From positions 75,268,001 to 75,332,000 of the forward strand of contig OX597826.1 in the NCBI GenBank assembly GCA_951406725.2: 64,000 bases of DNA, read 5' to 3'. The position numbers were made by a program, and so were the translations under genes. Source of the stretch: Octopus vulgaris (Eukaryota). This document shows positions 1,993-41,325 of the stretch, piece by piece. The notes beneath the pieces were generated by a model. It was not told the DNA's origin and did no database searches. It saw only the letters and a list, made by a program, of their open reading frames with translations. Every line of letters starts with the position of its first letter. The stretch's first letter is position 1.

Positions 1993-2388
1993 GATACTGG
2001 CTGAAACTTGCAGGAGAAATCTATTTACATCAGAAGCATCATCAATATTTATCATTATTTAAAGACTAAAAATGTTATTCAAAACAACTACAATTTTTTT
2101 ATGAATTTAATGAATTCTGGTGAAATGTTTATCAGCAACATTTAGTGTGTGTCACTGTCTGGAATGAGAACAAAATACTTTGAATTTTGTATAGACTTAG
2201 ATAAAATTTTTATAGGACTTTGTAGCTTAGATCATAGTTGATGGACATATTGAAGAAGGAATATTTGTTAGAAATGAATTATAGAAAGAGAAACCAGAAA
2301 CACATTCACATATTGTGGTGAGAGAAGGAACATGAATGTTAAATAAATCAAAAGATTGATTTTTTTTCTTTTTTTGTATTATGGAGAG
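1993..2388 (+). other. 5' UTR part of the coding exon of ZNF paralogue 1 (acceptor tttcAG at 1991-1992)
   Basis: tttcag|gatac acceptor and leader sequence are conserved in all four units (exon starts 1993, 12385, 21150, 30922). Confidence 0.7.
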
Positions 2389-3375
2389 ATGGCAAAAAAT
2401 TTAAGAAAGTCTTCATATGAATGTGATTTCTGTAAAAAGTCATTCACTACAAAAGGCCATCTTACTACTCATGTACGCATTCATACAGGAGAGAAACCAT
2501 ATCACTGTGGCATCTGTGGGAAATCATTCAATCAAAATGGTGAGTTAACTATTCATAAACGTCTTCATACAGGAGAGAAACCATATCATTGTGATATCTG
2601 TGGTCAATCATTCACTCGTAAAGATATTCTAACCACACACGTACGTATTCACACAGGAGAGAAACCATATCAGTGTGACATGTGCTGTAAATCTTTTGCT
2701 AAAAGTACCAATTTGACCGATCACAAACGCATTCATACTGGAGAAAAACCATATCACTGTGATTTCTGTGGTAAGTCGTTCAATCAAAGTAATCAGCTAA
2801 TTAAACACAAACGTATCCATACAGGAGAAAAGCCATATCACTGTGATATCTGTGACAAATCATTCTCTCGAAATGACGAGTTGACTGTACACAAATACAT
2901 TCATACAGGAGAGAAACCATATCACTGTGATTTCTGTGGCAAGTCATTCCATGAAAATAGTTCCTTGACTGGACACAAACGCATTCATACTGGAGAAAAG
3001 CGATTCCATTGTGATGTTTGTGGTAAAGGATTCATTCGAAGCATAGATTTAAGGGGACATATGCACATTCATACAGGAGAAAAACCCTACCGTTGTGATG
3101 TGTGTGGTAAATCATTCTCTCGAAATGGTGACTTAACAACACACAAACTCATTCATTCTGGAGAGAAACCACATCACTGTGATATCTGTGGCAAGTCATA
3201 CCGTCGAAATAACGAGTTAACTATTCACAAACGTACTCATACTGGGGAGAAACCATTCCATTGTGCCAGCTGTGGTAAATCATTCTCTTACAATTGTCGG
3301 TTAAATAAGCACAAATGTATTGGTATGGAAGAAAGACTATATCATCATAATGTGTTTGGTGAATCATTCTCTTGA
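2389..3375 (+). CDS. C2H2 zinc-finger protein, paralogue 1 (328 aa; 10 canonical fingers + 1 degenerate terminal finger; no effector domain)
   Basis: Tandem CxxC...HxxxH repeats with TGEKP linkers. ATG at 2389 (MAKNLRKSS) aligns with the start of the other paralogues; the ORF track's 2356 start is TTG. Confidence 0.95.
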   Translation: MAKNLRKSSYECDFCKKSFTTKGHLTTHVRIHTGEKPYHCGICGKSFNQNGELTIHKRLHTGEKPYHCDICGQSFTRKDILTTHVRIHTGEKPYQCDMCCKSFAKSTNLTDHKRIHTGEKPYHCDFCGKSFNQSNQLIKHKRIHTGEKPYHCDICDKSFSRNDELTVHKYIHTGEKPYHCDFCGKSFHENSSLTGHKRIHTGEKRFHCDVCGKGFIRSIDLRGHMHIHTGEKPYRCDVCGKSFSRNGDLTTHKLIHSGEKPHHCDICGKSYRRNNELTIHKRTHTGEKPFHCASCGKSFSYNCRLNKHKCIGMEERLYHHNVFGESFS

Positions 3376-4099: not shown

Positions 4100-4405
4100 G
4101 ATCTTTGTCTTGCAAGTTTCTTGGTGACCTCACTGGTGTGGATGCCACGTAAAAAGCATCCAGTCCACTCTGTAAAGTGGTTGGACTTTGGAAGGACATT
4201 CAGCCATAAAAACCATGCCAAAGCAGACCTTGCCAGTGCTGGTGCCATATAAAAAGCACCCTTAGTCCACTCTGTAAAATGGCTGGCATAAGGGCGGACA
4301 TCCAGTCGTAGAAACCATGCCAAAGCACTCAGTTGGAGCCTGGTGCTAGCTCCTGTCAAGCCATTCATCTGATATTAGCTTGGAAAAATAAGTGTTAAAT
4401 GATGA
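4100..4405 (+). mobile_element. RTE-3'-end-related short element
   Basis: gccacgtaaaaagca / ggagcctggtgc / gttaaatgatga motifs shared with the 3' UTR of the RTE at 25678-26548. Confidence 0.6.
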
Positions 4406-12104: not shown

Positions 12105-12801
12105 AAATATAGTCCTCTCCCTCTATATATATATATATTGGAGCCTGGTGCAGCCATCTGGTTCGCCAGTCCTCAGTCAAATCGTCCAACCCATGCTAGC
12201 ATGGAAAGCGGACGCTAAATGATGATGATGACGCACACACACACACACACACACACACGAAAAAATTTAATGATACACAAGAGTTCAGTTGTTCAGGTAA
12301 AGGTTTACTTTTACAATTTATAACAAATTTTTGCTTTAGAATCTACTGTTTAATTACATCTTTCTCTTTTTCTTATTGTTTCAGGATACAAGCTGATACT
12401 GGCAGAAAAAAAAAAAAAGAAGAAAATTATATTCATATTAGAAGCATCCTCAACGTTTATGGGGTTTTAAAAACTAAAGATGTTATACAGAACCAATACG
12501 ACCATGTTTTTATAAATCTGGCAAAAGGTTTTCTCCGGTTGAGAATATTGGCAACCTTTGTGTAAATCAACTGTTTAGAATGTGTACGGGATAATTTTGC
12601 ATTCTAAATAGACTTAGATATTTTTTTTATAAAGGACCTTGCAGCATAGATTGCAGTTGATGGAAACAGCAAAAGGAATGTTTGTTAGAAGTGAATTATA
12701 GAAAGGAAAACAACAAACTTATTCACATATTGTGGTGAGAGAAGAAACTTTGTTAAATGAATTGAAAGACTGATTTTTTTTATTCTTCTTATTCTTCAGA
12801 G

Positions 12802-13869
12802 ATGGCAAAAAAATTAGGGAAATCTTCATATGTGTGTTGTATCTGTGAAAAGTCATTCTCTTCGAAAGGTCATCTTACTACTCATATACGTACTCATACG
12901 GGAGAGAAACCATATCACTGTGATATCTGTGGTAAGACATTCTCTCGAAAGGATGAACTGACTACTCACATACGCATTCATACAGGAGAGAAGCCATATC
13001 ATTGTGATATCTGTGGTCATTCATTCACTCGTAGAGATATTTTAACTACACACATACGCATTCACACGGGAGAGAAACCATATCAATGTAACATGTGCAG
13101 CAAATCATTCTCTAAAAGTACCAATTTGACCGATCACAAACGCATTCATACTGGAGAAAAACCTTATCAATGTAATTTTTGTGGGAGATCATTTAATCAA
13201 AGTAATCAGCTAATTAAACACAAACGTATTCATACAGGAGAAAAGCCATATCACTGTGATGTGTGTGGTGAGTCATATCCTCGAAATGACGAGTTAACTG
13301 CTCACAAATATATTCATACAGGTGAGAAACCATATCAGTGCGATACCTGTGGAAAATCATTCCGTCGAAATGGTGATTTAACTATTCACAAACGCTCTCA
13401 TACAGGTGAAAAACGCTTTTATTGTGATGTTTGTGGTACGGGATTCAGCCAGAGTAATGATTTAAGGGGACATATTCGCACGCATACTGGGGAAAAACCG
13501 TATCGGTGTGATATCTGTGACAAATCATTCACTCGAGGGGATGAGTTAACCGTCCACAAAAACCTTCATGCAGGAGAGAAGCCACATCAGTGCGATATCT
13601 GTGGGAAATCATTCAGTCGAAAATACGATGTAACTACACACAAATCCATTCATAGTGGAGTGAGGCCGCATCAGTGTGACATCTGTGGGAAATCATTTCT
13701 TCGCAAAAATCAACTGACCACTCACAAACGTAGTCATACTGGAGAGAAACCATATCATTGTTATAATTGTGGTCAGTCGTTCAGTTACAGTTATCGGTTA
13801 ACTCAGCACAAATGTATTGGTACGGGAGAAAATGTGTATCATAATATTTTTGATAAACCATTGTCTTAA
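12802..13869 (+). CDS. C2H2 zinc-finger protein, paralogue 2 (355 aa; 11 canonical + 1 degenerate finger)
   Basis: Intact [12 protein letters not shown]..., TGEKP linkers, fingers 1 and 3-5 match the other paralogues. Confidence 0.95.
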
Positions 13870-16730: not shown

Positions 16731-17051
16731 TGATTAGCAGAAGAGTGGAGAATAACGTAAATCTCTCTCAGCAAACATCATTTGTCAATATTTATTAGTG
16801 GCAGAATCATCATTGCATCATAAAAAAATGTTTTGCCTTATTTTTCTTTGCTCTTTGTGAGTCCAAATTTTGCAAAGGTCAGTTTTACCGTTCATCACTC
16901 TGAGGTCTGAGATCTTCTCTCAAAATTGCTGGCTTTGTGCCTAAATTAGAAACAATTATTCATTATCCTCAGACTTGCTGAGCAGACATCTGATCAAAGA
17001 TATTCCAGCCATAACAATTCAGTTCTTTTCTGTAGCATAGTATATCTTTTC

Positions 17052-17447
17052 TCCTCCAGGCACAAGGCCTGAAATTTTTTTGGGGCGCAGGGCCAGTCGA
17101 TTAGATCGACTCCAGCACGCAACTGGTACTTAGTTTATCGACCCCGAAAGGATGAAAGACAAAGTCAACCTCAGCGGAATTTGAACTCAGAATGTAACGG
17201 CAGACGAAGTACCTATTTCTTTACTACCCACAAAGGGCTAAACACAGAGGGGATAAACAAGGACAGAGACACGGATTAAGTCGATTATATCAACCCTAGT
17301 GTATAACTGGTATTTATTTAATCGACCCCGAAAGGATGAAAGGCAAAGTCGACCTCGGCGGTATTTGAACTCAGAACGTAACAGCAGACGAAATACGGCT
17401 ACGCTTTTCGCCCGGAGTGCTAACGTTTCTGCCAGCTCGCTGCCCTT
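17052..17447 (-). mobile_element. Family-C SINE dimer
   Basis: Core present twice; same junction as 51180-51502. Confidence 0.8.
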
Positions 17448-17880
17448 CTGTAGCATAGTATATGAAGAATACATTATTGAATAGATAAGTAAAGGTGCGT
17501 GGCTTAGGGGTTAGGTTATTCGACTCATGATCGTGAGGTAATATGAGTAATAACTGCATTTCAAAGGGTTTAGGCTTGTCACATTGAGCCACGCTGTATC
17601 TCCCTGAGAACTACATCGAAGGTACGCGTGTTTTATGAAGTGTTCAGCCACTCGTACGTTCATTTCACGCTAGGATCAAATGGAACACTCGTCGTCGTAA
17701 CGAAGAACCAGTTTATTGAATACAGTCCTCCAATTCAAGGCTGAAATATATAATCCGAGGGAAAATCAGGCTGCTGTTTCTAGTAGGTCATCTATAGCTG
17801 TTCCCTTGCTGCTATGTAGTTTTTAAACCCTGGGAAACTTAACATTTTGTTCACCTGTTGGTCACATTGCATTTCAGTTT

Positions 17881-18081
17881 TCTTTTATTTATTCGTTACA
17901 TAATAGCTACTTAAAAAAGGGCCGTTATCAAATTTTATACGAAACAGTGGCTGACAATCAATCTCAAAGTGTGTCCATATATTCTTTTATATTTTTAATT
18001 AGAAACGAATTTCTTGATTATTTTCTGGCGAAGAAATTCCAACTTAATCGATTCTATTTGCGAAATATAAAATAAAAAGAA
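17881..18081 (+). promoter_or_regulatory. Putative promoter + non-coding exon 1 of ZNF paralogue 3 (donor GTAAGT at 18082)
   Basis: High similarity to 7633-7849; homology continues ~600 bp into the intron. Confidence 0.65.
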
Positions 18082-18978
18082 GTAAGTATTTAATGTCTTT
18101 AAATCTATATAAAATATTTTTGCACTGATGGGTTTATGAAAAGGTCAACGAAACGGGAACCTGTTTTTTTTTAATTATCTCATAGAACAGAAATTACGAT
18201 TCTGAAAAGTTTTATCTTAAAATTTTAATTTCTTATTTTTGCTCCCTTTTCCCCAATTCTCTGTCCCTTTCCTTCACCATGAAGTACTGATTGCTATTTC
18301 GAAACATTGCCATTTTCAATATTTCATTTCATTTTTTTTTATACGGGTAAATTGTTGAGCAGGGCACTCCAATATTATGTTGTGGGGCACCTGAGCACTG
18401 TATACAATAATTTTATCATTATATTTTCCCTCCACCTCTACTTTTCGTGTCCGCTCATAAGCTACACTGTCTACACCGAATAGAATTCCTACCGACTGTT
18501 TTCCTGTATTTCGAGCATGGCTATATCCCTGTTAAGATCAGGGTCTTGTCTTCTTTCCTACTTGCTAATAATGCTTTTAATCTTTGCTAAATTCACTTTG
18601 TGGTTTCGATTCTGGGCTTTGTTTCAATGACTGGAAATTCTTTTCTAATTCTACAGATTCTAATTCTATAGGAACTAGGTGATAGCGATGCTGCTATGCC
18701 AGTTATCGGTTATGATGGACTAAGTACCAGTTACGCACTGGGGAACAATATAATCGACTTAATCCGTTTGTCTGTCCTTGTTTGTCCCCTCTGTGTTTAG
18801 CTCCTTGTGGGTAGTAAAGAAATAGGTTATGAAGGACTCGTATACCCAGAGACTAATCCATTCCCCACCCACCCAGACAGGTTTAGCTTCTCAGTACATA
18901 TTAGTTTTTTTTTTATAGCGATTGAAACATCTATCACTTCAAAGATTTCTTTGTAGCTATGCCTTTGGTCCTTTAGAG

Positions 18979-19179
18979 CAGTGGTTTTCAACCAGGGTTC
19001 CGCCAGTACAGTCCAGGGGTTCCGCAAGAAGTTACAAAACTGTTAAAATCGACAGTAATTTTTAATTCTCCTGTGCAGATATGTGTGCATAAGACTATTA
19101 AATTATTGCACAGGGGTTCCTCGAGCTAGTGGAATGTTTCCTTGGGGTTCCGCTCCAGCAAAAAGTTTGAAAAGCACTG
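18979..19179. mobile_element. hAT (Buster/Charlie-type) MITE
   Basis: TIRs cagtggttttcaac / tttgaaaagcactg; perfect 8-bp TSD CTTTAGAG. Confidence 0.9.
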
Positions 19180-19431
19180 CTTTAGAGTTTAAACAAACTT
19201 CTAGCCTAGCCTAAATCGTCAGTAGGCTTATAGGAACAACATCTTTTAATTTGATTTTCCGTCTTGAACATCAGCTGTTTGTCCATTTCGTGGATAGCCC
19301 CTTATTCCTTCTTTGTCATAATCATTGCGCATGGCAAGCGAAAGGTTTATTGGACCCAAAGTTTTAGCATAACTACAGATGCGTGCTCCTCTCTCTTAAT
19401 TTGTTTCCTCATAACTTCCTGAATATTTTAC

Positions 19432-19708
19432 AACGAAAACAATTGCAGCGTGGAAGGTGTTTGTAAGCCATTTAAGAAACACACAAAAACCGTTCGATTC
19501 ACTTCAACATTTAAATTTAATTTGTCAAAATATTTTCGTCTCTTTGAGATCGCGACCTGTTCACTGACAAAACTTCGTGCAGCATAATTGAATCTAACGG
19601 TTTTGTGTGTTTCTTAAATGGCTTATAAACACCTTCCACGCTGCAATTGTTTTCGTTCCAGCACACGATCTTAGATCAGGTCACTTGCTATGAAGTACAT
19701 CTCCGTAA
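19432..19708 (-). mobile_element. Penelope-like inverted pseudo-LTR remnant
   Basis: ~70-bp inverted arms (19432-19501 / 19588-19657) around a hammerhead-like motif; flanking direct repeat tttacaacgaa. Confidence 0.6.
19521..19571 (-). ncRNA. Minimal type-I hammerhead-ribozyme-like motif, G3-C8 variant
   Basis: uuuguca GUGAACA g gucgc-loop-gagac GAAA AUAU UU ugacaaa; 7-bp stem I. Confidence 0.6.
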
Positions 19709-19823
19709 TTTACAACGAAGTTTATGACAAATAGTTTTCAGATAGTATAGATTACAGTTATCTTTTCTTGTTTCAGTCATTGGACTGCGGCCATGTTGGG
19801 GCACTACCTCGAAGGGTCTAGTT

Positions 19824-19976
19824 CAGTGGTGGTTCCCAACCTTTTCACTACCAAGGACCCCTTTTATTTAAATGAGTTTTCCCACTGACTCCAGGATATT
19901 GAGAGGTCTGTCAGCTTAGCATGTTCACGGAGCCCTAGTACGGTTACCTTTGCGGACCACAGGTTGGGACCATCTG
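19824..19976. mobile_element. hAT-type MITE nested in a family-A SINE
   Basis: TIR-like cagtggtggttcccaacc / ggttgggaccatctg; TSD gtctagtt/gtctagtc. Confidence 0.75.
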
Positions 19977-20064
19977 GTCTAGTCTAACAAATCGACCCCA
20001 GTACTTATTTTTTATTAAAACCTCGTACTTTTTGTCGCACCACAACCCTTACCTTTTTCCAAGC

Positions 20065-20493
20065 TTTTATGTGCCACCGGCATGAGGGCCAGTCAGGTGG
20101 TACTGGCAACAGCCACGCTCAAATGGTGTTTTTTACGTGCCACCTGCACAGGAACCAGTCCAGCGGCACTAGCAACAACCTCACTCGAATGTTTTCTAAC
20201 GTGCCAGTAAGGCAACGCTGGTAATGATCACGCTTGAATGGTGCTTTTTACTTGCCTTCATCACAGAAGCCAGTTAGCTGCTCTGCAAAGATTACACTCG
20301 GATGGTGCTCTTAGCGCTCATCTAGCACGGATGCCAGTCATCGAATTTGATTTTGATTTCACTTGCCTCAACAGGTCTTCACAAGCAGAGTTACATGTCC
20401 AATGAAGGAAAGGTACACATAAGTGGACTGGTTACACCCCTGGCATAGGCCATGGGTTATGGTCTCACTTGGCTTGCTGGGTCTTCTCAAGCT
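20065..20493 (-). mobile_element. RTE-3'UTR-related element
   Basis: Repeated ggtgcttttta(c/t)gtgcc motifs and ttgattttgatt...gcctcaacaggtct shared with 25860-26090. Confidence 0.6.
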
Positions 20494-20603
20494 GTCAAAG
20501 TTTACCATATACCTTACCACAAATTTCATACTTGACAACCCAATAGTATTTACATTTGGCATAAGCCCATAACCCTTCCACATAAATTTTCGTTTCGTCA
20601 AGA

Positions 20604-20640
20604 CTATTGAAAAGGTTGCAAGACGCAACGAAAATTTTAG
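20604..20640 (+). ncRNA. Minimal type-I hammerhead-ribozyme-like motif, U3-A8 variant
   Basis: cua UUGAAAA g guugc-aagac-gcaac GAAA AU UU uag; perfect 5-bp stem II. Confidence 0.55.
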
Positions 20641-20733
20641 GAAAATAAAAATAAGAAATAAGTGGAAATTTTACCAGTGAGTGTGTAACATTATAAGGCA
20701 CAAAAAGAAAATGACTCTCCCCAGACACAACAG

Positions 20734-20771
<38 letters not shown>

Positions 20772-20930
20772 TTCACACACACACCACTGAACTTGTAATG
20801 AAAATTACACAGTTATGTTTCGAAAACATTTCACCCAATCAAATTTAAATGCTTATTCGTTGATTTAAATTATATCACATAACATTAATGTACCTGTACA
20901 ATCATGATTTAAATTCAGTATTCATTGCAG

Positions 20931-20969
20931 CTGTCTGACGGATGGGAATGTGAAACTCTTGAGTATCAG
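20931..20969 (+). ncRNA. Decayed minimal hammerhead-like motif (C3-G8, A9G)
   Basis: cugu CUGACGG aug-ggaa-ugu GAAACUC-uu-GAGUA ucag. Confidence 0.5.
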
Positions 20970-21532
20970 TTCTGTGACAATTTTGCAGCTTTAATAAAAA
21001 GTATATATATATAAAATTGTAGTGATGTGTGACTGGTTAGCTGAAAATTTACTTCTACAATTTATAGAAATGAAATAAAATTTCTGCTATAAAATCTCTA
21101 TTGTTTAAATATTCTCTATATCTTACACTGTTTCTCTTATTATTTTCAGGATACTAGCTGACATAAAAATTATATTTACATCAGAAGCATCCTCAATATT
21201 TATCATCTTTTCAAGGCAAAGGAATATGTTATACAGAAGAAATATAACCATGCTTATATAAGTCTGGTGAATTATGGCGAAATATTGCTTCTGACTAAAA
21301 TTATTAACATTTGTGTAATTCACTGTCTGGAATTAGTACAAAATAATTTTGCATTCTAAATAGACTCAGATAAATTTATAAAGGTCTTTGCAGTTTGATA
21401 GACATATAGCAGAAGGAATATTTGTTGGAAATAAATTATATAAAAGGAAAACAAGCAACATATATACTGTGGTGTGAGAAGAAAAGTTTTTTGGTTAAAT
21501 GAGTTGAAAGATTGAGTTTTTATCCCGAAGAA

Positions 21533-22519
21533 ATGGCAAAAAACTTAGCAAAGTCTTCATATGAATGTGATATCTGTAAAAAGTCATTCACTACAAAAGG
21601 CCATCTTACTACTCATGTACGTATTCATACAGGAGAGAAACCATATCACTGTGATATCTGTGGGAAGTCATTCAATCAGAATGGTGAGTTAACTATTCAT
21701 AAACGTCTTCATACGGGAGAGAAACCATATCAGTGTGATATCTGTGGTCAATCATTCACTCGTAAAGATATTTTAACTACACACAGACGTATTCACACAG
21801 GAGAGAAACCATATCAGTGTGATATGTGCTGTAAATCCTTCTCTAAAAGTACTAACTTAACCGATCACAAACGCATTCATACCGGAGAAAAGCCATACCA
21901 ATGTGATTTCTGTGGTAAATCATTCAATCAAAATAACCAGTTAATTAAACACAAGCGTATTCATACGGGAGAAAAGCCTTATCACTGTGATATCTGTGAC
22001 AAATCATTCTCTCGAAATGATGAATTAATTGCTCACAAACACATTCATACAGGTGAGAAGCCTTATCAGTGTGATACCTGTGGTAAGTCATACCCTCGAA
22101 ATAATCAATTAACTACCCACAAGCGCACCCATACTGGAGAAAAACGGTTTCATTGCGATATTTGTGGTAAAGCATTCTCTCATAGTAACGTTTTAAAGGG
22201 ACACAAACGCATTCATACTGGGGAGAAGCCCTATCACTGTGATATCTGTGACAAATCCTTCTCACGAAATGATGAATTAACCATTCACAAACATGTTCAT
22301 ACAGGAGAGAAACCGTATCAGTGTGACATGTGCAGTAAGTCATACCGTCGCAAAAACCAATTAACTGCTCACCGACGTATCCATACAGGAGAAAATCCAT
22401 ATCGTTGTGACAACTGTGGTAAATCATTCTCTCACAGTGGTCGGTTAGCTAAGCACAAATGTAACAGTGTAAGAGAAAAACTATATCACCGGAATATTTG
22501 TGGTAAATCATTCTCTTAA
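21533..22519 (+). CDS. C2H2 zinc-finger protein, paralogue 3 (328 aa; 10 canonical + 1 degenerate finger)
   Basis: ATG at 21533 (MAKNLAKSS); same length and finger 1-6 pattern as paralogue 1. Confidence 0.95.
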
Positions 22520-29788: not shown

Positions 29789-31359
29789 ATTATTTCAAAT
29801 AATTATTTGAAATTATAGGTAGTGGGGCTCCGAAATGGGTTTCAGGGAGTAGTTTCCCTGCCTTCCTGAGCTAGTTTTCCACCACATTTCTTAAAAATCG
29901 TGGTAGGGTCCTTGGTCTCGGGACAACTCATGCCTAGAAACTGAGGATGGGGGTAAGCAAGGGTATGCTCCCTGTAGAAAATCCAGCTCTAAAAAAGCCT
30001 CGTGATATCAAAGGAGAATGGGCACCAGCCAGACTGAAGGTTGGGGTGGGATGCACCTGCCTACCCCAATTGCTATGGCATTGAAGTAGAGCTGGCCACC
30101 CCTATTAATGGGGACAAAACCCAGATTTAAAATACCAGATTATGATGAAACAAACAAATGGCAGATTCGGGTTGTCTATAATTTAATACTGTGATTAAAA
30201 AAATAAATTTCGAAAAATGTGGAAATTTTAGGATTTATAGGGTGAGAGTGGGAAAATAAAAGATTTAATTAAAAAAAAATAGATTTTTTTTTTTTTACAT
30301 ACTGGTACAAGGTCCAGTGTGTAGAAGACAAATCTGCAAGCATTTTCTGAAAATTCCTAAGAAGCCTAAAAGCTATGAGGAGTTATATGGTGTTCTTTGA
30401 AAGGGGTAGGGTTTTATTTTTTTTCCTTACTTACTAATATTTTACTCTTTACTACATCCTGGAGCACCACTTTGAAAGATTTAGTTGAACAAATTGACCC
30501 CAGAACTTATTTTATTAAGTCTGGTACATATTCTGTGGGTGTCCTTTGCCATACTGCTAAGTTATGGGATGTGAACAAACCAACAATGACTGTCAAGCAG
30601 TAGTGGGTGGGGGGAAACAGAAACATCCCCCGTCTCCCCACACACACTGTCGGCTTCTTCTCAGTTGGCGTCTGCCAAATCCACTCAAGGTTTCGGTTGG
30701 TCTTGGGCTGTAGCAGAAAACACTTTCCCAAGGTGCCACACAGTGGAACTGAACCAAGAATCTTGTAGTTAGGAAGTAAACATCTTACCACACAGCCATG
30801 CCTACACTTTAGTAGAGGAATTCAGATGTTCAAGTAAAAAGAAATTAAATTTCTGCTCTAGAATCTTTACACTTAAAATAAATGTCCTCTCCATCTTATT
30901 CTCTTTTTCTTACTGTTTCAGGATACTTGCTGACGTTGACATTAAAATATTATATTCACATCAGAAGAATCTGCGGCATTTATCATCTTTTCAAGGCAAA
31001 GGAATATGTTATACAGAAGAAATATAACCATGCTTATATAAATTTGGTGAATTGTGGTGAAAGGTTTCTTCTGGGTAAAAATATTAGCAACATTTGTGTA
31101 ATTCACTGTCTGGAATAAGTACAAAATAATTTTAGATTCTAAATAGACTCTAGTTAAATTGAATTGATACAGGACTTTGCTGCATTTTCAGATGTTGGTA
31201 AAGATCATGGTTGATAGAAATACAACAGAAGGAATATTTGTTACAAATACATTATAAAAAAAAAAAGGAAAATGAGAAGCGTGTCCATATATTCTGGTAA
31301 GAGAAGTAAAACTTTGGTTAAATGAATTAAAAGATTGGTTTTTCTTTCATTCTGAAGAG

Positions 31360-32541
31360 ATGGCAAAAGATTTTGGAAAGTCTTCATATGAATGTGATAT
31401 CTGTGAAAAGTCATTCACGACAAAGAGTTACCTATCTGTTCACAAACGTCTTCATACAGGAGAAAAACCATATCTCTGTGAAACTTGTGGTAAAACGTTC
31501 TCTCGGAATGATAAGTTGAATATTCACAAATGCATTAAGAGAAGAGAGAAGCAATATAATTTTTCTTTTACTAAAGAGATGACAAAAATGTTAGAAAACT
31601 CATCCTATGAATGCTGCATCTGTAAAAAGTCATTCACTACAAAAGGCCATCTTACTACTCACGTACGTATTCATACAGGAGAGAAACCATATCACTGTGA
31701 TATCTGTGGTAAAGCGTTCTCTCGAACTGATGAGTTAACTACTCACAAGCGTGTTCATACAGGGGAGAAACCATATGAATGTGATATCTGTGGTCAATCA
31801 TTCACTCGTAAAGATATTCTAACCACACACAGACGTATTCACACAGGAGAGAAACCATATCAGTGTGATATGTGCAGTAAATCATTCGCTAAAAGTACCA
31901 ACTTGACCGATCACAAACGCATTCATACTGGAGAAAAACCATATCACTGTGATTTCTGTGGCAGATCATTTAATCAAAATAACCAATTAATTAAACACAA
32001 ACGCATTCATACTGGGGAAAAGCCCTATCACTGTGATATCTGTGGTGAGTCATTCTCTCGAAATGATAAGTTAAATGTTCACAAACGCTCTCATACAGGA
32101 GAGAAACCATATCAGTGTGATATCTGTGGTAAATCATTCCCTCAAAATAGCGGCTTGACTAGACACAAACGTATTCATACTGGAGAAAAGCCATTTCATT
32201 GCGATATTTGTGGTAAATCATTCCCTCGAAGTAACGCCTTAACTGCACACACACGTACTCATACTGGAGAAAAACCGTATCATTGTGATATCTGTGGTAA
32301 AGCATTTTCTCAAAGCCCTGCTGTAACTGTACACAAACGCATTCATACTGGGGAAAACCCATATCAATGTGATATCTGTGGTAAGGCATTTTCTCAAAGT
32401 CCTGCTGTAGTTGTACACAGACGTATTCATACTGGGGAGAATCCATATTATTGTGATATCTGTGACAAATCATTTCCTCAGAGAAATTCCTTGATTGATC
32501 ACAAACGTATTCATACTGAAGAAAATCTATTCCATTGTTGA
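31360..32541 (+). CDS. C2H2 zinc-finger protein, paralogue 4 (393 aa; 2-finger N-terminal module + 11 fingers)
   Basis: Intact ORF; second in-frame paralogue-type start (MTKMLENSS) at 31579; ends at a frameshift-created TGA. Confidence 0.93.
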
Positions 32542-35960: not shown

Positions 35961-36151
35961 GGTATGTGTAGCTTAAATACTGAGATTGAAAGGCAGGAGT
36001 GAATTATGCCAACCCAATCTGGAAAAGAATAAAATATTTTGCATTTTATGCCAAATAAACAAAGTAACCTTCATAATTTTATAGAATTTGGGGCATATTT
36101 TGCCATAAATGGAAGATGTTGCTATCGATCTATTTTATTCAAGGTAGGCAC

Positions 36152-37427
36152 TGTATGTATGTATGTATGTATGTATGTTTGTATGTGTATATGTATGTAT
36201 GTATGTATGTATGTTTGTATGTGTATGTATGTATGTATGTATGTATGTATGTATGTATGTATGTATGTATGTATGTATGTATGTATGTATGTATGTATGT
36301 ATGTATGTATGTATGTATGTATGTATGTATGTATGTATGTATGTATGTATGTATGTATGTATGTATGTATGCATGTATGTATGTATGTATGTATGTATGT
36401 ATGTATGTATGTATGTATGTATGTATGCATGTATGTATGTATGTATGTATGTATGTATGTATGTATGTATGTATGTATGTATGTATGTATGTATGTATGT
36501 ATGTATGTATGTATGTATGTATGTATGTATGTATGTGTATGTATGTATGTATGTATGTATGTATGTATGTATGTATGTATGTATGTATGTATGTATGTAT
36601 GTATGTATGTATGTATGTATGTATGTATGTATGTATGTATGTATGTATGTATGTATGTATGTATGTATGTATGTATGTATGTATGTATGTATGTATGTAT
36701 GTATGTATGTATGTATGTATGTATGTATGTATGTATGTATGTATGTATGTATGTATGTATGTATGTATGTATGTATGTATGTATGTATGTATGTATGTAT
36801 GTATGTATGTATGTATGTATGTATGTATGTATGTATGTATGTATGTATGTATGTATGTATGTATGTATGTATGTATGTATGTATGTATGTATGTATGTAT
36901 GTATGTATGTATGTATGTATGTATGTATGTATGTATGTATGTATGTATGTATGTATGTATGTATGTATGTATGTATGTATGTATGTATGTATGTATGTAT
37001 GTATGTTATGTATGTATGTATGTATGTATGTATGTATGTATGTATGTATGTATGCATATATGTATGTATCTATGTATGTATGTATGTATGTATGTATGTA
37101 TGTATGTATGTATGTATGTATGTATGTATGTATGTATGTATGTATGTATGTATGTATGTATGTATGTATGTATGTATGTATGTATGTATGTATGTATGTA
37201 TGTATGTATGTATGTATGTATGTATGTATGTATGTATGTATGTATGTATGTATGTATGTATGTATGTATGTATGTATGTATGTATGTATGTATGTATGTA
37301 TGTATGTATGTATGTATGTATGTATGTATGTATGTATGTATGTATGTATGTATGTATGTATGTATGTATGTATGTATGTATGTATGTATGTATGTATGTA
37401 TGTATGTATGTATGTATGTATTGTATG

Positions 37428-37459
<32 letters not shown>

Positions 37460-37475
37460 TGTATGTATGTATGTA
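36152..37475. repeat. (TATG)n microsatellite, ~1.3 kb
   Basis: Directly visible, with few interruptions. Confidence 0.98.
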
Positions 37476-38200
37476 CGAGTGTTATACAAACGTTTCTCAC
37501 TGTAGTCCAGTGACGAACAGATGTCTCTCTCTCTGTGGTGACCTCATTTGTCATTTCGTCTGCTGAAGTCTGGTGGCGATAGAAGAGTGGCAACATGTGC
37601 AGACCTAAACAGTTCGAAGTGTACGGTGAGTTACACCTTTCGTATGTCACCTGTGCTTCAAACCTGGCAGATCTGCAACAGGACTGAACATTCATCCGAC
37701 AGGTCATGGATGGGAAGTCAGAAATGCCATTGATAACGAAGAAGCACTTGACGGAGCAATCACCGCGCGTGTGTGTGTGTGTGTGGGTATATATAAACCA
37801 TCATCATCATCGCCATCATCATTTGATGTCTGTTTTCCAGAAAAACAGTAACAATAAAATTTATGCTGCCATTTTCCCATGGCTGTTTTCCTGACTTTCA
37901 CTATTCCTTTCGCGCATTCTGGACAGCGAACTACAAGCTTGGGTTTTGAATCTAACTAAATTTCCTGTAACATTATTCCTCTGCTAAAAGTTGGCTATAA
38001 ATCAACGAATGAAAGGCGGATAGAAGATTGGAACCCCCCCCCCAAAAAAAAACAACAAAACAAACTAAAATAAAGTTCCTTCCCGAATCACGTATACTCA
38101 CGGGGCCGGTTTCCATGGCGTATATATTTCCCACCTGGATGGGACGCCGGTCCATCGCGGGAATAATTCATTTTTGCCAGCTGAGTGGACTAGAGAAATG

Positions 38201-39424
38201 CGACACGGCTTCGTGCCGAAGAGATCATGCTTGACCAACTTACTGGTAATTGAAGAATTGGTGACGCGCATCCTCGATGATAGTGATGCTGTTGACATCG
38301 TTTTATTGGACTTTGCCAAAGCTTTTGACTCGGTAAACCACCGCCTATTACTTGTCAAGCTTCAAGCATATAGTTTCCATCCTGACATTGTACGATAGGT
38401 TGGTGCCTTCCTCTCAGATTGCTCCTTCCAAGTCCAAGTTAATGGTTCGCGGTCCGACGTCTCCAGTGCGAGCAGTGGCGTGCCTCAAGGTTCAGTGCTT
38501 GGGCCCTTATTGTTCTTAGTCTTCATAAATGACTTGCCCGACGACCTCACGCAACACACCCTTCTATTTGCCGATGATTTCAAACTGGTTGCTCCTCGCG
38601 GTGATATAGAGGATCTTCGTCGATGCCTCCACCAAATTTGGAGATGGTCTAACGAATGGGACCTGTGTCTGAACGTGTCAAAGTGCTGTCATCTGCCTGT
38701 TGGCTCTTCTCCTGCAACTCAACTTGATTTCGAGCCGGGTCGTCTGCTGCTGGAGAGGACCGACCAGGTAAAGGACCTGGGTATCTTGGTGGATTCTTCC
38801 TTTTCGCCTTCGGCCCAGTGCGTCCATGCTGCCAACAAAGCACGCGGAGTTCTGTTTTTGATTCGACGGTCATTCGGAATGCTCACAGTAGCCATATTCC
38901 TACCGCTCTATGTCACGCTGGTGAGACCCATATTGGAGTACCGGATTCAAGCCTCTTCTCCTTATCTCCTCAAAGACATACAGCATCTCGAAAGAGTCCA
39001 GAAGCTGGCTACCCGCATGATTCTTGGTCTCAAGCATTTGTCATATGAAGAAAGGCTGAAGACGCTCACCTTTATTCTCTAGAAAAACGACGACGCCGTG
39101 GTGATCTCATTCTTGCTCACAACATCATAAGCGGAAAGTGTAACCTCTCGAAAGAGCTGTTCTTCACTCCTGCTCCAGAGCGTCGGCTGCGGGGTCACTC
39201 CGAAAAGCTCTATCTGCGACGATTTCATCTCAATCGAAGGAGAGGGGCTTTCTCCGTCCGGGTTGCGCATCCGTGGAATAAGCTGCCGGACGAGATAGTG
39301 AAGATGCCGACGACCGCTCGGTTCAAAGTCTCCCTTGACCACAAGTGGCCTGAACTCTTTACATGAACACCACCCTGTACATAACTCCATGTCCCCCTAC
39401 ATGGCCTTGCTTTTGCTTTTTTGA
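38201..39424 (+). mobile_element. CR1-clade LINE 3' fragment, copy 1 (defective RT)
   Basis: HGF...RSCLTNLL, LDFAKAFD.V.H, GVPQGSVLGPLLF..FINDL, FADD; stop at 38396 and frameshift near 39067. Confidence 0.92.
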
Positions 39425-40077: not shown

Positions 40078-41325
40078 GGCTTCGTGCCGAAGAGATCATG
40101 CTTGACCAACTTACTGGTAATTGAAGAATTGGTGACGCGCATCCTCGATGATAGTGATGCTGTTGACATCGTTTTATTGGACTTTGCCAAAGCTTTTGAC
40201 TCGGTAAACCACCGCCTATTACTTGTCAAGCTTCAAGCATATAGTTTCCATCCTGACATTGTACGATAGGTTGGTGCCTTCCTCTCAGATTGCTCCTTCC
40301 AAGTCCAAAGTTAATGGTTCGCGGTCCGACGTCTCCAGTGCGAGCAGTGGCGTGCCTCAAGGTTCAGTGTTTGGGCCCTTATTGTTCTTAGTCTTCATAA
40401 ATGACTTGCCCGACGACCTCACGCAACACACCCTTCTATTTGCCGATGATGTCAAACTGGTCGCTCCTAGCGGTGATATAGAGGATCTTCGTCGATGCCT
40501 CCACAAAATTTGGAGATGGTCTAACGAATGGGACCTGTGTCTGAACGTGTCAAAGTGCTGTCATCTGCCTGTTGGCTCTTCTCCTGCAACTCAACTTGAT
40601 TTCGAGCCGGGTCGTCTGCTGCTGGAGAGGACCGACCAGGTAAAGGACCTGGGTATCTTGGTGGATTCTTCCTTTTCGCCTTCGGCCCAGTGCGTCCATG
40701 CTGCCAACAAAGCACGCGGAGTTCTGTTTTTGATTCGACGGTCATTCGGAATGCTCACAGTAGCCATATTCCTACCGCTCTATGTCACGCTGGTGAGACC
40801 CATATTGGAGTACGGGATTCAAGCCTCTTCTCCTTATCTCCTCAAAGACATACAGCACCTCGAAAGAGTCCAGAAGCTGGCTACCCGCATGGTTCTTGGT
40901 CTCAAGCATTTGTCTTATGAAGAAAGGCTGAAGACGCTCGACCATTATTCTCTAGAAAAACGCCGCCGCCGTGGTGATCTCATTCTTGCTCACAACATCA
41001 TAAGCGGAAAGTGTAACCTCTCGAAAGAGCTGTTCTTCACTCCTGCTCCAGAGCGTCGGCTGCGGGGTCACTCCGAAAAGCTCTATCTGCGACGATTTCA
41101 TCTCAATCGAAGGAGAGGGGCTTTCTCCGTCCGGGTTGCGCATCCGTGGAATAAGCTGCCGGACGAGATAGTGAAGATGCCGACGACCGCTCGGTTCAAA
41201 GTCTCCCTTGACCACAAGTGGCCTGAACTCTTTACATGAACACCACCCTGTACATAACTCCATGTCCCCCTACATGGCCTTGCTTTTTGCTTTTTGAGCC
41301 AAAAATTAACTAACTAACTAACTAA
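40078..41325 (+). mobile_element. CR1-clade LINE 3' fragment, copy 2, with (TAAC)n tail
   Basis: Near identical to copy 1; stop at 40267; 1-nt insertion near 40308; ORF2 end at 41239. Confidence 0.92.

Follow-up and report, generated by a model that had tools for sequence, protein, structure and literature searches.

A family-wide G3–C8 pair in the hammerhead motif of a Penelope-like element of Octopus vulgaris

We analysed a 64,000-nt stretch of the Octopus vulgaris genome (hereafter, the window) and identified an insertion that, judging from its sequence, is one of approximately 5,000 copies of the beginning of a Penelope-like element (PLE) in which core pair 3–8 of a hammerhead motif is G3–C8 throughout the family. 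C3–G8 is the near-universal core pair of hammerheads. We give a probability of about 0.78 to the reading that the insertion stems from a Neptune-type PLE and that its family-wide G3–C8 leader motif is a ribozyme, likely slow and aided by dimerization or by protein. Hammerhead-bearing EN+ PLEs are already known, and what appears to be new is the fixed natural G3–C8 in a ribozyme core.

Results

The hammerhead motif in the window

The motif lies on the minus strand at window positions 19521–19571 and has the architecture of a type I hammerhead, with three helices around the core and the open end in stem I. Read from 19571 to 19521, it consists of uuuguca, the core GUGAACA, a g that is unpaired and separates A9 from stem II, gucgc, gaucucaaa, gagac, GAAA, auau, UU and ugacaaa. 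The initial annotation, made from the letters of the window, had proposed a 7-bp stem I and a self-complementary AAUAUU stem III; the pairing of stem I (19571–19565 with 19527–19521) was verified and the palindrome was found. The proposal that both deviations from CUGANGA fall at paired positions was likewise borne out, with G3 (canonically C) at 19564 and C8 (canonically G) at 19559, both on the minus strand. Stem II, described as 4/5, pairs in this way in the window copy, whereas the family has a perfect 5/5 GUCGC/GCGAC stem; by this sequence comparison the mismatch of the window copy is decay. The predicted cleavage bond, U17^U1.1 in hammerhead numbering, lies at 19527–19528 on the minus strand. 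The 3–8 pair is Watson–Crick, and U4, G5, A6, A9, G12, A13, A14, the A15.1–U16.1 pair and H17 are all present; as a sequence, the putative ribozyme departs only from the literal CUGANGA core and is otherwise like a minimal PLE hammerhead.

In isolation, the 51-mer was no more stable than its shuffles (fold z = −1.23); the predicted fold of the window copy contains the stem II mismatch and a competing hairpin, and the AAUAUU duplex by itself amounts to only −0.2 kcal/mol. In the predicted fold of a young family copy, stems I and II were formed, and stem III only as an intermolecular palindrome. An Rfam scan of window positions 17000–22000 did not report a hammerhead at E ≤ 10, and returned only a miRNA-model match to the long hairpin and weak matches.

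Structure of the inverted insertion

The insertion is flanked by an 11-bp direct repeat, TTTACAACGAA, at 19427–19437 and 19709–19719 (plus strand), which represents the target-site duplication; the last 6 nt of its first copy also match the element (microhomology). The sense arm (19438–19585, minus strand) extends from the element's 5′ end, close to position +3 in the inferred transcript, as far as the first of two fixed 3′ ends, and is tail-less; it shows 90% identity (blastn) to the full-length copy in locus L148 and includes the first codons of the PLE ORF (19438–19471, minus strand, with the ATG at 19471–19469). The inverted arm (19589–19709, plus strand) repeats the 5′ end once more but breaks off before reaching the hammerhead. 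It carries the ORF start (ATG at 19618, followed in the window copy by an early stop and a 1-bp deletion) and the 58-nt ‘tail’, ORF sequence located between the two fixed 3′ ends (19652–19709, plus strand). The arms match each other over 57 nt at 98% (19432–19488 with 19601–19657) and over a further 19 nt at 89% (19486–19504 with 19586–19604), a total of approximately 73 bp, so both the arms of about 70 bp and the 11-bp repeat described initially were recovered. The same description, of a PLE insertion with the ribozyme in the loop of the arms, was right about the link to PLEs, but the arms do not form a frame around the ribozyme, and one of them stops short of the motif. Both match the leader and first codons of an ORF for reverse transcriptase (RT) and GIY-YIG, and on this basis the window arms are two reverse-transcribed copies of one 5′ end, not terminal repeats.

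As regards the surroundings, the window contains four tandem C2H2 zinc-finger exons on the plus strand (2347–3375, 12766–13869, 21503–22519 and 31276–32541), and the PLE insertion lies 1.8 kb upstream of the third. Taken with named homologues from Octopus (P0004, P0095), these exons point to a cephalopod-like host. A small separate element with 21-nt inverted ends (86%), possibly a MITE, is located 240 bp to the left of the insertion (18971–19187). Farther to the right are a (TATG)n microsatellite of approximately 1.4 kb (36033–37566) and two near-identical LINE reverse-transcriptase 3′ fragments in tandem (38399–39082 and 40208–41239).

The repeat family and its fixed G3–C8 pair

A 341-nt region of the window matched many places in the 2.8-Gb genome (the best 40 of 2,688 candidates were scored), and 30 aligned copies have both outer ends in common but differ in the junction between the sense and inverted arms. 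Using a 21-mer spanning G3 to C8, we detected 4,829 exact genome matches and none with the reversed control, indicating that the G3 to C8 core does not occur by chance. With positions 3 and 8 left free, the core pattern gave 5,345 matches, 4,829 (90%) of them with G3 and C8; random variation at these positions, which the initial annotation had named as evidence against its own reading, was not what the copies displayed. Among the first 100 matches listed for the free pattern, 93 were G3+C8, seven had single changes and none was C3–G8. A set of 151 copies unselected on positions 3 and 8 contained G3 in 147 of 150 (one gap excluded) and C8 in 139 of 151, the remaining catalytic core positions being canonical, and all 13 motifs found by descriptor beside family ORFs (20 large loci) were G3–C8. 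Apart from C8G, the only non-CpG subfamily variation in the motif was in loop II and at one stem I site (A>G, with a U·G pair retained).

The pattern S3–G8 had 212 genome matches, and 100 of the 100 listed were unpaired G3·G8. These versions represent about 4% of copies, are present on every haplotype background and weigh against a strict requirement for the pair. C8G was found in 4 of 151 copies, compared with 21/4773 at other C/G columns, in a column picked post hoc and with a few other columns also reaching 3 of about 150 copies. The proposal that G3·G8 forms an older intermediate clade was not supported (divergence of 3.6% vs 2.1%, p = 0.09); enrichment on the older background was observed (18/21 vs 17/34, p = 0.01), as longer decay also predicts. 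The distribution in sequence leaves room for the view that unpaired versions may have spread, and G3·G8 copies may be relics of an intermediate, may come from a hotspot or may have been mobilised in trans.

The autonomous element

Where copies extend further upstream, they run into a GIY-YIG frame. In a protein search (best 150 of 3,531 candidates scored), we identified open frames of up to 1,025 aa in the window family and of up to 1,312 aa in a sister family with approximately 54% identity. The 1,025-aa frame (L146) includes YVDD, a CX4CX2C linker and GIY-YIG (PF01541, E = 1.8e-05). Locus L148 has the arrangement pLTR–ORF–pLTR plus an inverted copy, with hammerhead motifs at 4242 and 8503 and the ATG at 4334, and carries frameshifts; pLTRs in direct and inverted orientation that hold the hammerhead were seen in this locus and in others. 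In such long copies the motif lies about 55 nt upstream of the RT + GIY-YIG ORF, and the linked ORF for which the initial annotation had advised a search was found in L148 and L146. Pfam gave no RT match on the family ORF, and the RT was recognized from its motifs and from homologues named as RT-domain proteins; a PDB sequence search of the ORF gave 0 matches. The single ORF with RT and C-terminal GIY-YIG is, at the sequence level, that of an EN+ PLE, and the linker joining RT to EN (CQSNCAVC in P0002) fits the CX2-5CxxC of the Neptune/Nematis clades. On its motifs, we provisionally take the family to belong to Neptune rather than to Nematis. As judged from the ORF, the family fits the descriptions of Neptune/Nematis in the sections of PMC8557442 considered here, and would represent a Neptune-type EN+ PLE.

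Two further observations concern individual loci. Microsatellite sequence of the (CATA)n and (TA)n types is abundant over approximately 950 nt of the element's 3′ UTR/pLTR in L148 (7535–8480), and microsatellites may be seeded by the family. In L113, two same-strand copies separated by 3,455 bp were considered as a full element and rejected, being a segmental duplication.

Sister families and the direction of the exchange

A motif homologous to that of the window family precedes the ORF of the sister family and has C3–G8 (L152:7534–7581, minus strand; L151, L153–L157 and L166–L194), and sister families retain stem II GUC..GAC, the extra G and A15.1–U16.1 together with C3–G8. A pattern that excludes G3 and C8 matched 5,600 times, in the same stem II frame and from at least four lineages; in one of these (L173), stem I, N7 and the UU site are nearly identical to the window family and the core is CUGAAGA. 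When eight motifs were aligned, 95.5% of 88 cells paired, and stem I, stem II and pair 3–8 all showed two-sided changes, the rows being few and related and the shuffle figures not probabilities. A descriptor with positions 3 and 8 free was applied to 76 related metagenome loci and detected 12 motifs, 10 of them distinct (eight C3–G8, two U3–A8 and no G3–C8), with no match in the other 64 loci and a shuffle background of 0.33 per set. In a seven-row tree of the C-terminal region, from which two short rows (L173 and L212) were omitted, the window family joins its C3–G8 sister (99/98) among relatives with CG and UA pairs. The C3–G8 homologues of the sister family, and the absence of G3–C8 among the distinct motifs of relatives, indicate from sequence comparison that the family-wide G3–C8 swap is derived and compensatory; it is a single evolutionary event. 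Two random changes among the 11 core positions yield a complementary 3–8 pair in about 1 of 165 cases.

Position 9 also varies in these relatives. In the sister family with the 1,312-aa ORF, C9 is the commonest state (CUGAUGC; 17 of the 30 first matches listed), other copies having A9, and a related metagenome element (L328) carries U3–A8 with C9. The descriptor also found an unrelated U3–A8 hammerhead-like motif with a CAUG palindrome at L153:8345 (plus strand).

Formation of the insertions

We identified 124 head-to-head pairs, 88 of which had enough overlap to score; in 76 of the 88, one arm ends after the 58-nt tail and the other before it. Their arms comprise the first 150–205 nt of the element and end at two fixed ORF-internal points. 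AT-rich duplications were seen in most of the 27 copies displayed, several being ambiguous within (TA)n. Among 30 loci in genome order, some of which are two arms of one insertion or duplicates, four run on upstream and the other 26 stop inside the 15-nt leader. We considered 36 short copies keeping AGATGCAGC, with 24 upstream-continuing copies and loci chosen by these letters set aside. The preceding letter, C in the element, is G in 22 of the 36 (p = 3e-8), and the letters further upstream vary; minus 11 cases explicable by fold-back or microhomology, the count was 11/25 (p = 0.004). In full-length L1 insertions, an added G is a sign of capped templates, according to the part of PMC11702581 considered, and the extra 5′ G in the present family suggests capped, uncleaved templates. 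In three insertions (L057, L065 and L067), the two arms have different multi-base loop II types, so that, by sequence, at least some insertions drew on two different templates. The use of two RNAs per insertion as a rule was rejected, with 8% discordant sites between arms vs 44% for random pairing.

The proposed transcription start is the A of AGAUGCAGC, which precedes stem I by 15 nt, and the templates would be mostly capped and uncleaved. The element protein would nick both strands of an AT-rich site approximately 9–13 bp apart, and reverse transcription would be primed at two sites in the ORF start, near +147 and +207. If the transcript started in the pLTR, such internal priming would copy only the first 150–205 nt and leave a head-to-head pair of arms, only one of which has the tail. 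The 76 of 88 pairs of tailed and tail-less arms match the two RT start sites described for PAc, the Poseidon element of Anolis carolinensis, in the sections of PMC11167929 considered, and support the internal-priming mechanism. Some PLEs have an intron in the 5′ UTR, and a splice acceptor might take the place of the transcription start: the 20 nt upstream of the inferred start resemble a branch point and 3′ splice site (at L148:4198–4222, a branch point, polypyrimidine tract and 3′ splice site in appearance), and a 31-mer across this acceptor-like sequence has 389 exact copies, whereas no GT..AG joint occurred among the joints listed from the RNA contigs of four runs, which argues weakly against splicing. 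RNA contigs from seven distinct runs displayed neither a start peak nor an end peak, although contigs are not suited to revealing ends of this kind.

Discussion

Cleavage and alternative readings

The clean flip of the 3–8 pair suggests that the motif likely still cleaves RNA, the pair being retained by selection, in our proposal, while its orientation flipped. Cleavage after U17 would remove a capped 58 nt, or split read-through tandem transcripts into units, and is predicted to require a second hammerhead pairing via AAUAUU. In the parts of the literature considered here, PLE hammerheads are slow cutters that act as dimers or with protein (PMC4209133, PMC11167929), and G8C alone lowers the rate approximately 1e5-fold (PMC8495972); mutating the PAc hammerhead leaves insertion in vitro unimpaired, and engineered C3G/G8C only partly rescues cleavage (PMC11167929). 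Natural U3–A8 hammerheads are known (PMC3088659, PMC4209133).

Genomic 5′ ends were compared with the predicted cut. A non-T letter stands right before the cut in 118 copies; of 30 examined, 20 were truncated according to the script and 17 after reading, three of those being stem I homology switches, giving an estimate of about 55–67 copies that end at the cut. Controls at −4 (12/30 of 118 matches, about 47) and at +2 (2/30 of 454, about 30) place the enrichment at the cut at no more than about twofold, with intervals that overlap the controls. A more elaborate version, in which the family is the first natural family-wide G3–C8 case, a two-transversion valley was crossed with the G3·G8 copies as its relics, the palindromic stem III joins two capped RNAs so that a dimer of the protein primes both DNA strands and produces the head-to-head insertions, and cleavage takes place only in that complex, is tentative and rather unlikely.

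A true hammerhead homologue without a useful cutting rate, whose fold or palindrome is kept for protein binding, translation or packaging, would agree with the lack of a clear 5′-end peak at the cut and with the retention of the whole motif in most inserted copies, many with the cap-like G. The G3·G8 copies on all haplotype backgrounds, the spread of the sister family with A9C (17/30 of the first matches listed) and the occasional use of two templates, as in the arms of L057, L065 and L067 with their different loop II types, point the same way. We regard this reading as rather unlikely, since all other catalytic core positions are canonical and selection on fold only would not obviously retain G5, A6 and G12–A14. 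Moreover, the PAc motif leaves no genomic trace either, yet cuts with protein (sections considered of PMC11167929), and both arms mostly belong to one subfamily (8% discordant sites vs 44% for random pairing). Still less credible, and very improbable, is a neutral accident in a dead motif riding a successful retrotransposon: copy number reflects descent from a few source elements rather than per-copy selection and the swap is one event, but a complementary pair from two random core changes is expected only about once in 165, the stems covary across families, and the pair is also U3–A8 in relatives. A DNA-transposon MITE bearing terminal inverted repeats and a chance hammerhead look-alike is a reading that the inverted arms of about 73 bp and the 11-bp direct repeat might suggest; it is refuted by the long copies, the arms being the 5′ leader and ORF start of an RT + GIY-YIG element that vary in length and junction per copy, without fixed terminal repeats or fixed length and with many copies lacking an inverted arm, and we consider it next to impossible.

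Significance

The putative slow, probably assisted ribozyme of a Neptune-type PLE bears on a role that is in question, as PLE hammerheads show poor cleavage in vitro and can be dispensed with for insertion in the one reconstituted system. Sparing the catalytic 3–8 pair, a natural double transversion is direct evolutionary evidence of selection on the fold and, being fixed in a system whose surroundings are already known, makes PLE hammerhead function directly testable; one genome with C3–G8, G3–C8, G3·G8 and A9C in homologous settings offers a ready panel for cleavage assays. Descriptors based on CUGANGA, and Rfam, can overlook whole families, here of approximately 5,000 copies. Internal initiation on uncleaved RNA gains genomic support in a second PLE clade from the cap-like G and the tail asymmetry.

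Comparison with known systems

Our literature searches did not find a natural G3–C8 hammerhead, an earlier mention still being possible; the G3–C8 cases encountered were engineered (PMC3884650, PMC8495972 and PMC11167929), and the portions considered of PMC6155905, PMC6765202 and PMC11014351 contain nothing further on this pair. The comparisons below likewise refer to portions of each source. With the minimal PLE hammerheads of Cervera & de la Pena (2014, PMC4209133), the window motif shares the type I form, a palindromic stem III of the dimer type, an extra nucleotide between 9 and 10.1, G10.1–C11.1, often U17, a location in the pLTR and many solo or inverted copies. In contrast, none of the 56 representative motifs of their Fig. 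S3 has G3, whereas the window core is GUGAACA; the natural covariation reported there is U3–A8, not G3–C8, and the extra nucleotide is H in their consensus and G in the window family.

PAc (Frangieh et al. 2024, PMC11167929) resembles the window family in the hammerhead at the pLTR–ORF junction, in two internal RT start sites bounding the tail and in AT-rich targets, and its main template is unprocessed RNA, as proposed for the window family. Unlike PAc, the window family has a Neptune-type linker, a 58-nt tail (30–40 in PAc) and an ORF beginning approximately 55 nt past the motif and not, as in PAc, within stem II, and its G3–C8 pair is natural rather than engineered. The tertiary 3–8 pair also covaries in the natural U3–A8 hammerheads of Perreault et al. 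(2011, PMC3088659); that change consists of two transitions via U·G, whereas G3–C8 involves two transversions via G·G or C·C. The Neptune/Nematis EN+ PLEs of Craig et al. (2021, PMC8557442) have the C-terminal GIY-YIG and CX2-5CxxC linker seen here, and likewise show inverted 5′-truncated copies, a tail and a (TA)n target bias. Finally, the non-LTR retrozymes (bioRxiv 10.64898/2026.07.22.740005) are, like the window copies, short non-coding type I units from PLE pLTRs; retrozymes form head-to-tail arrays, whereas the copies described here are dispersed monomers or head-to-head pairs, which look like by-products of the autonomous element.
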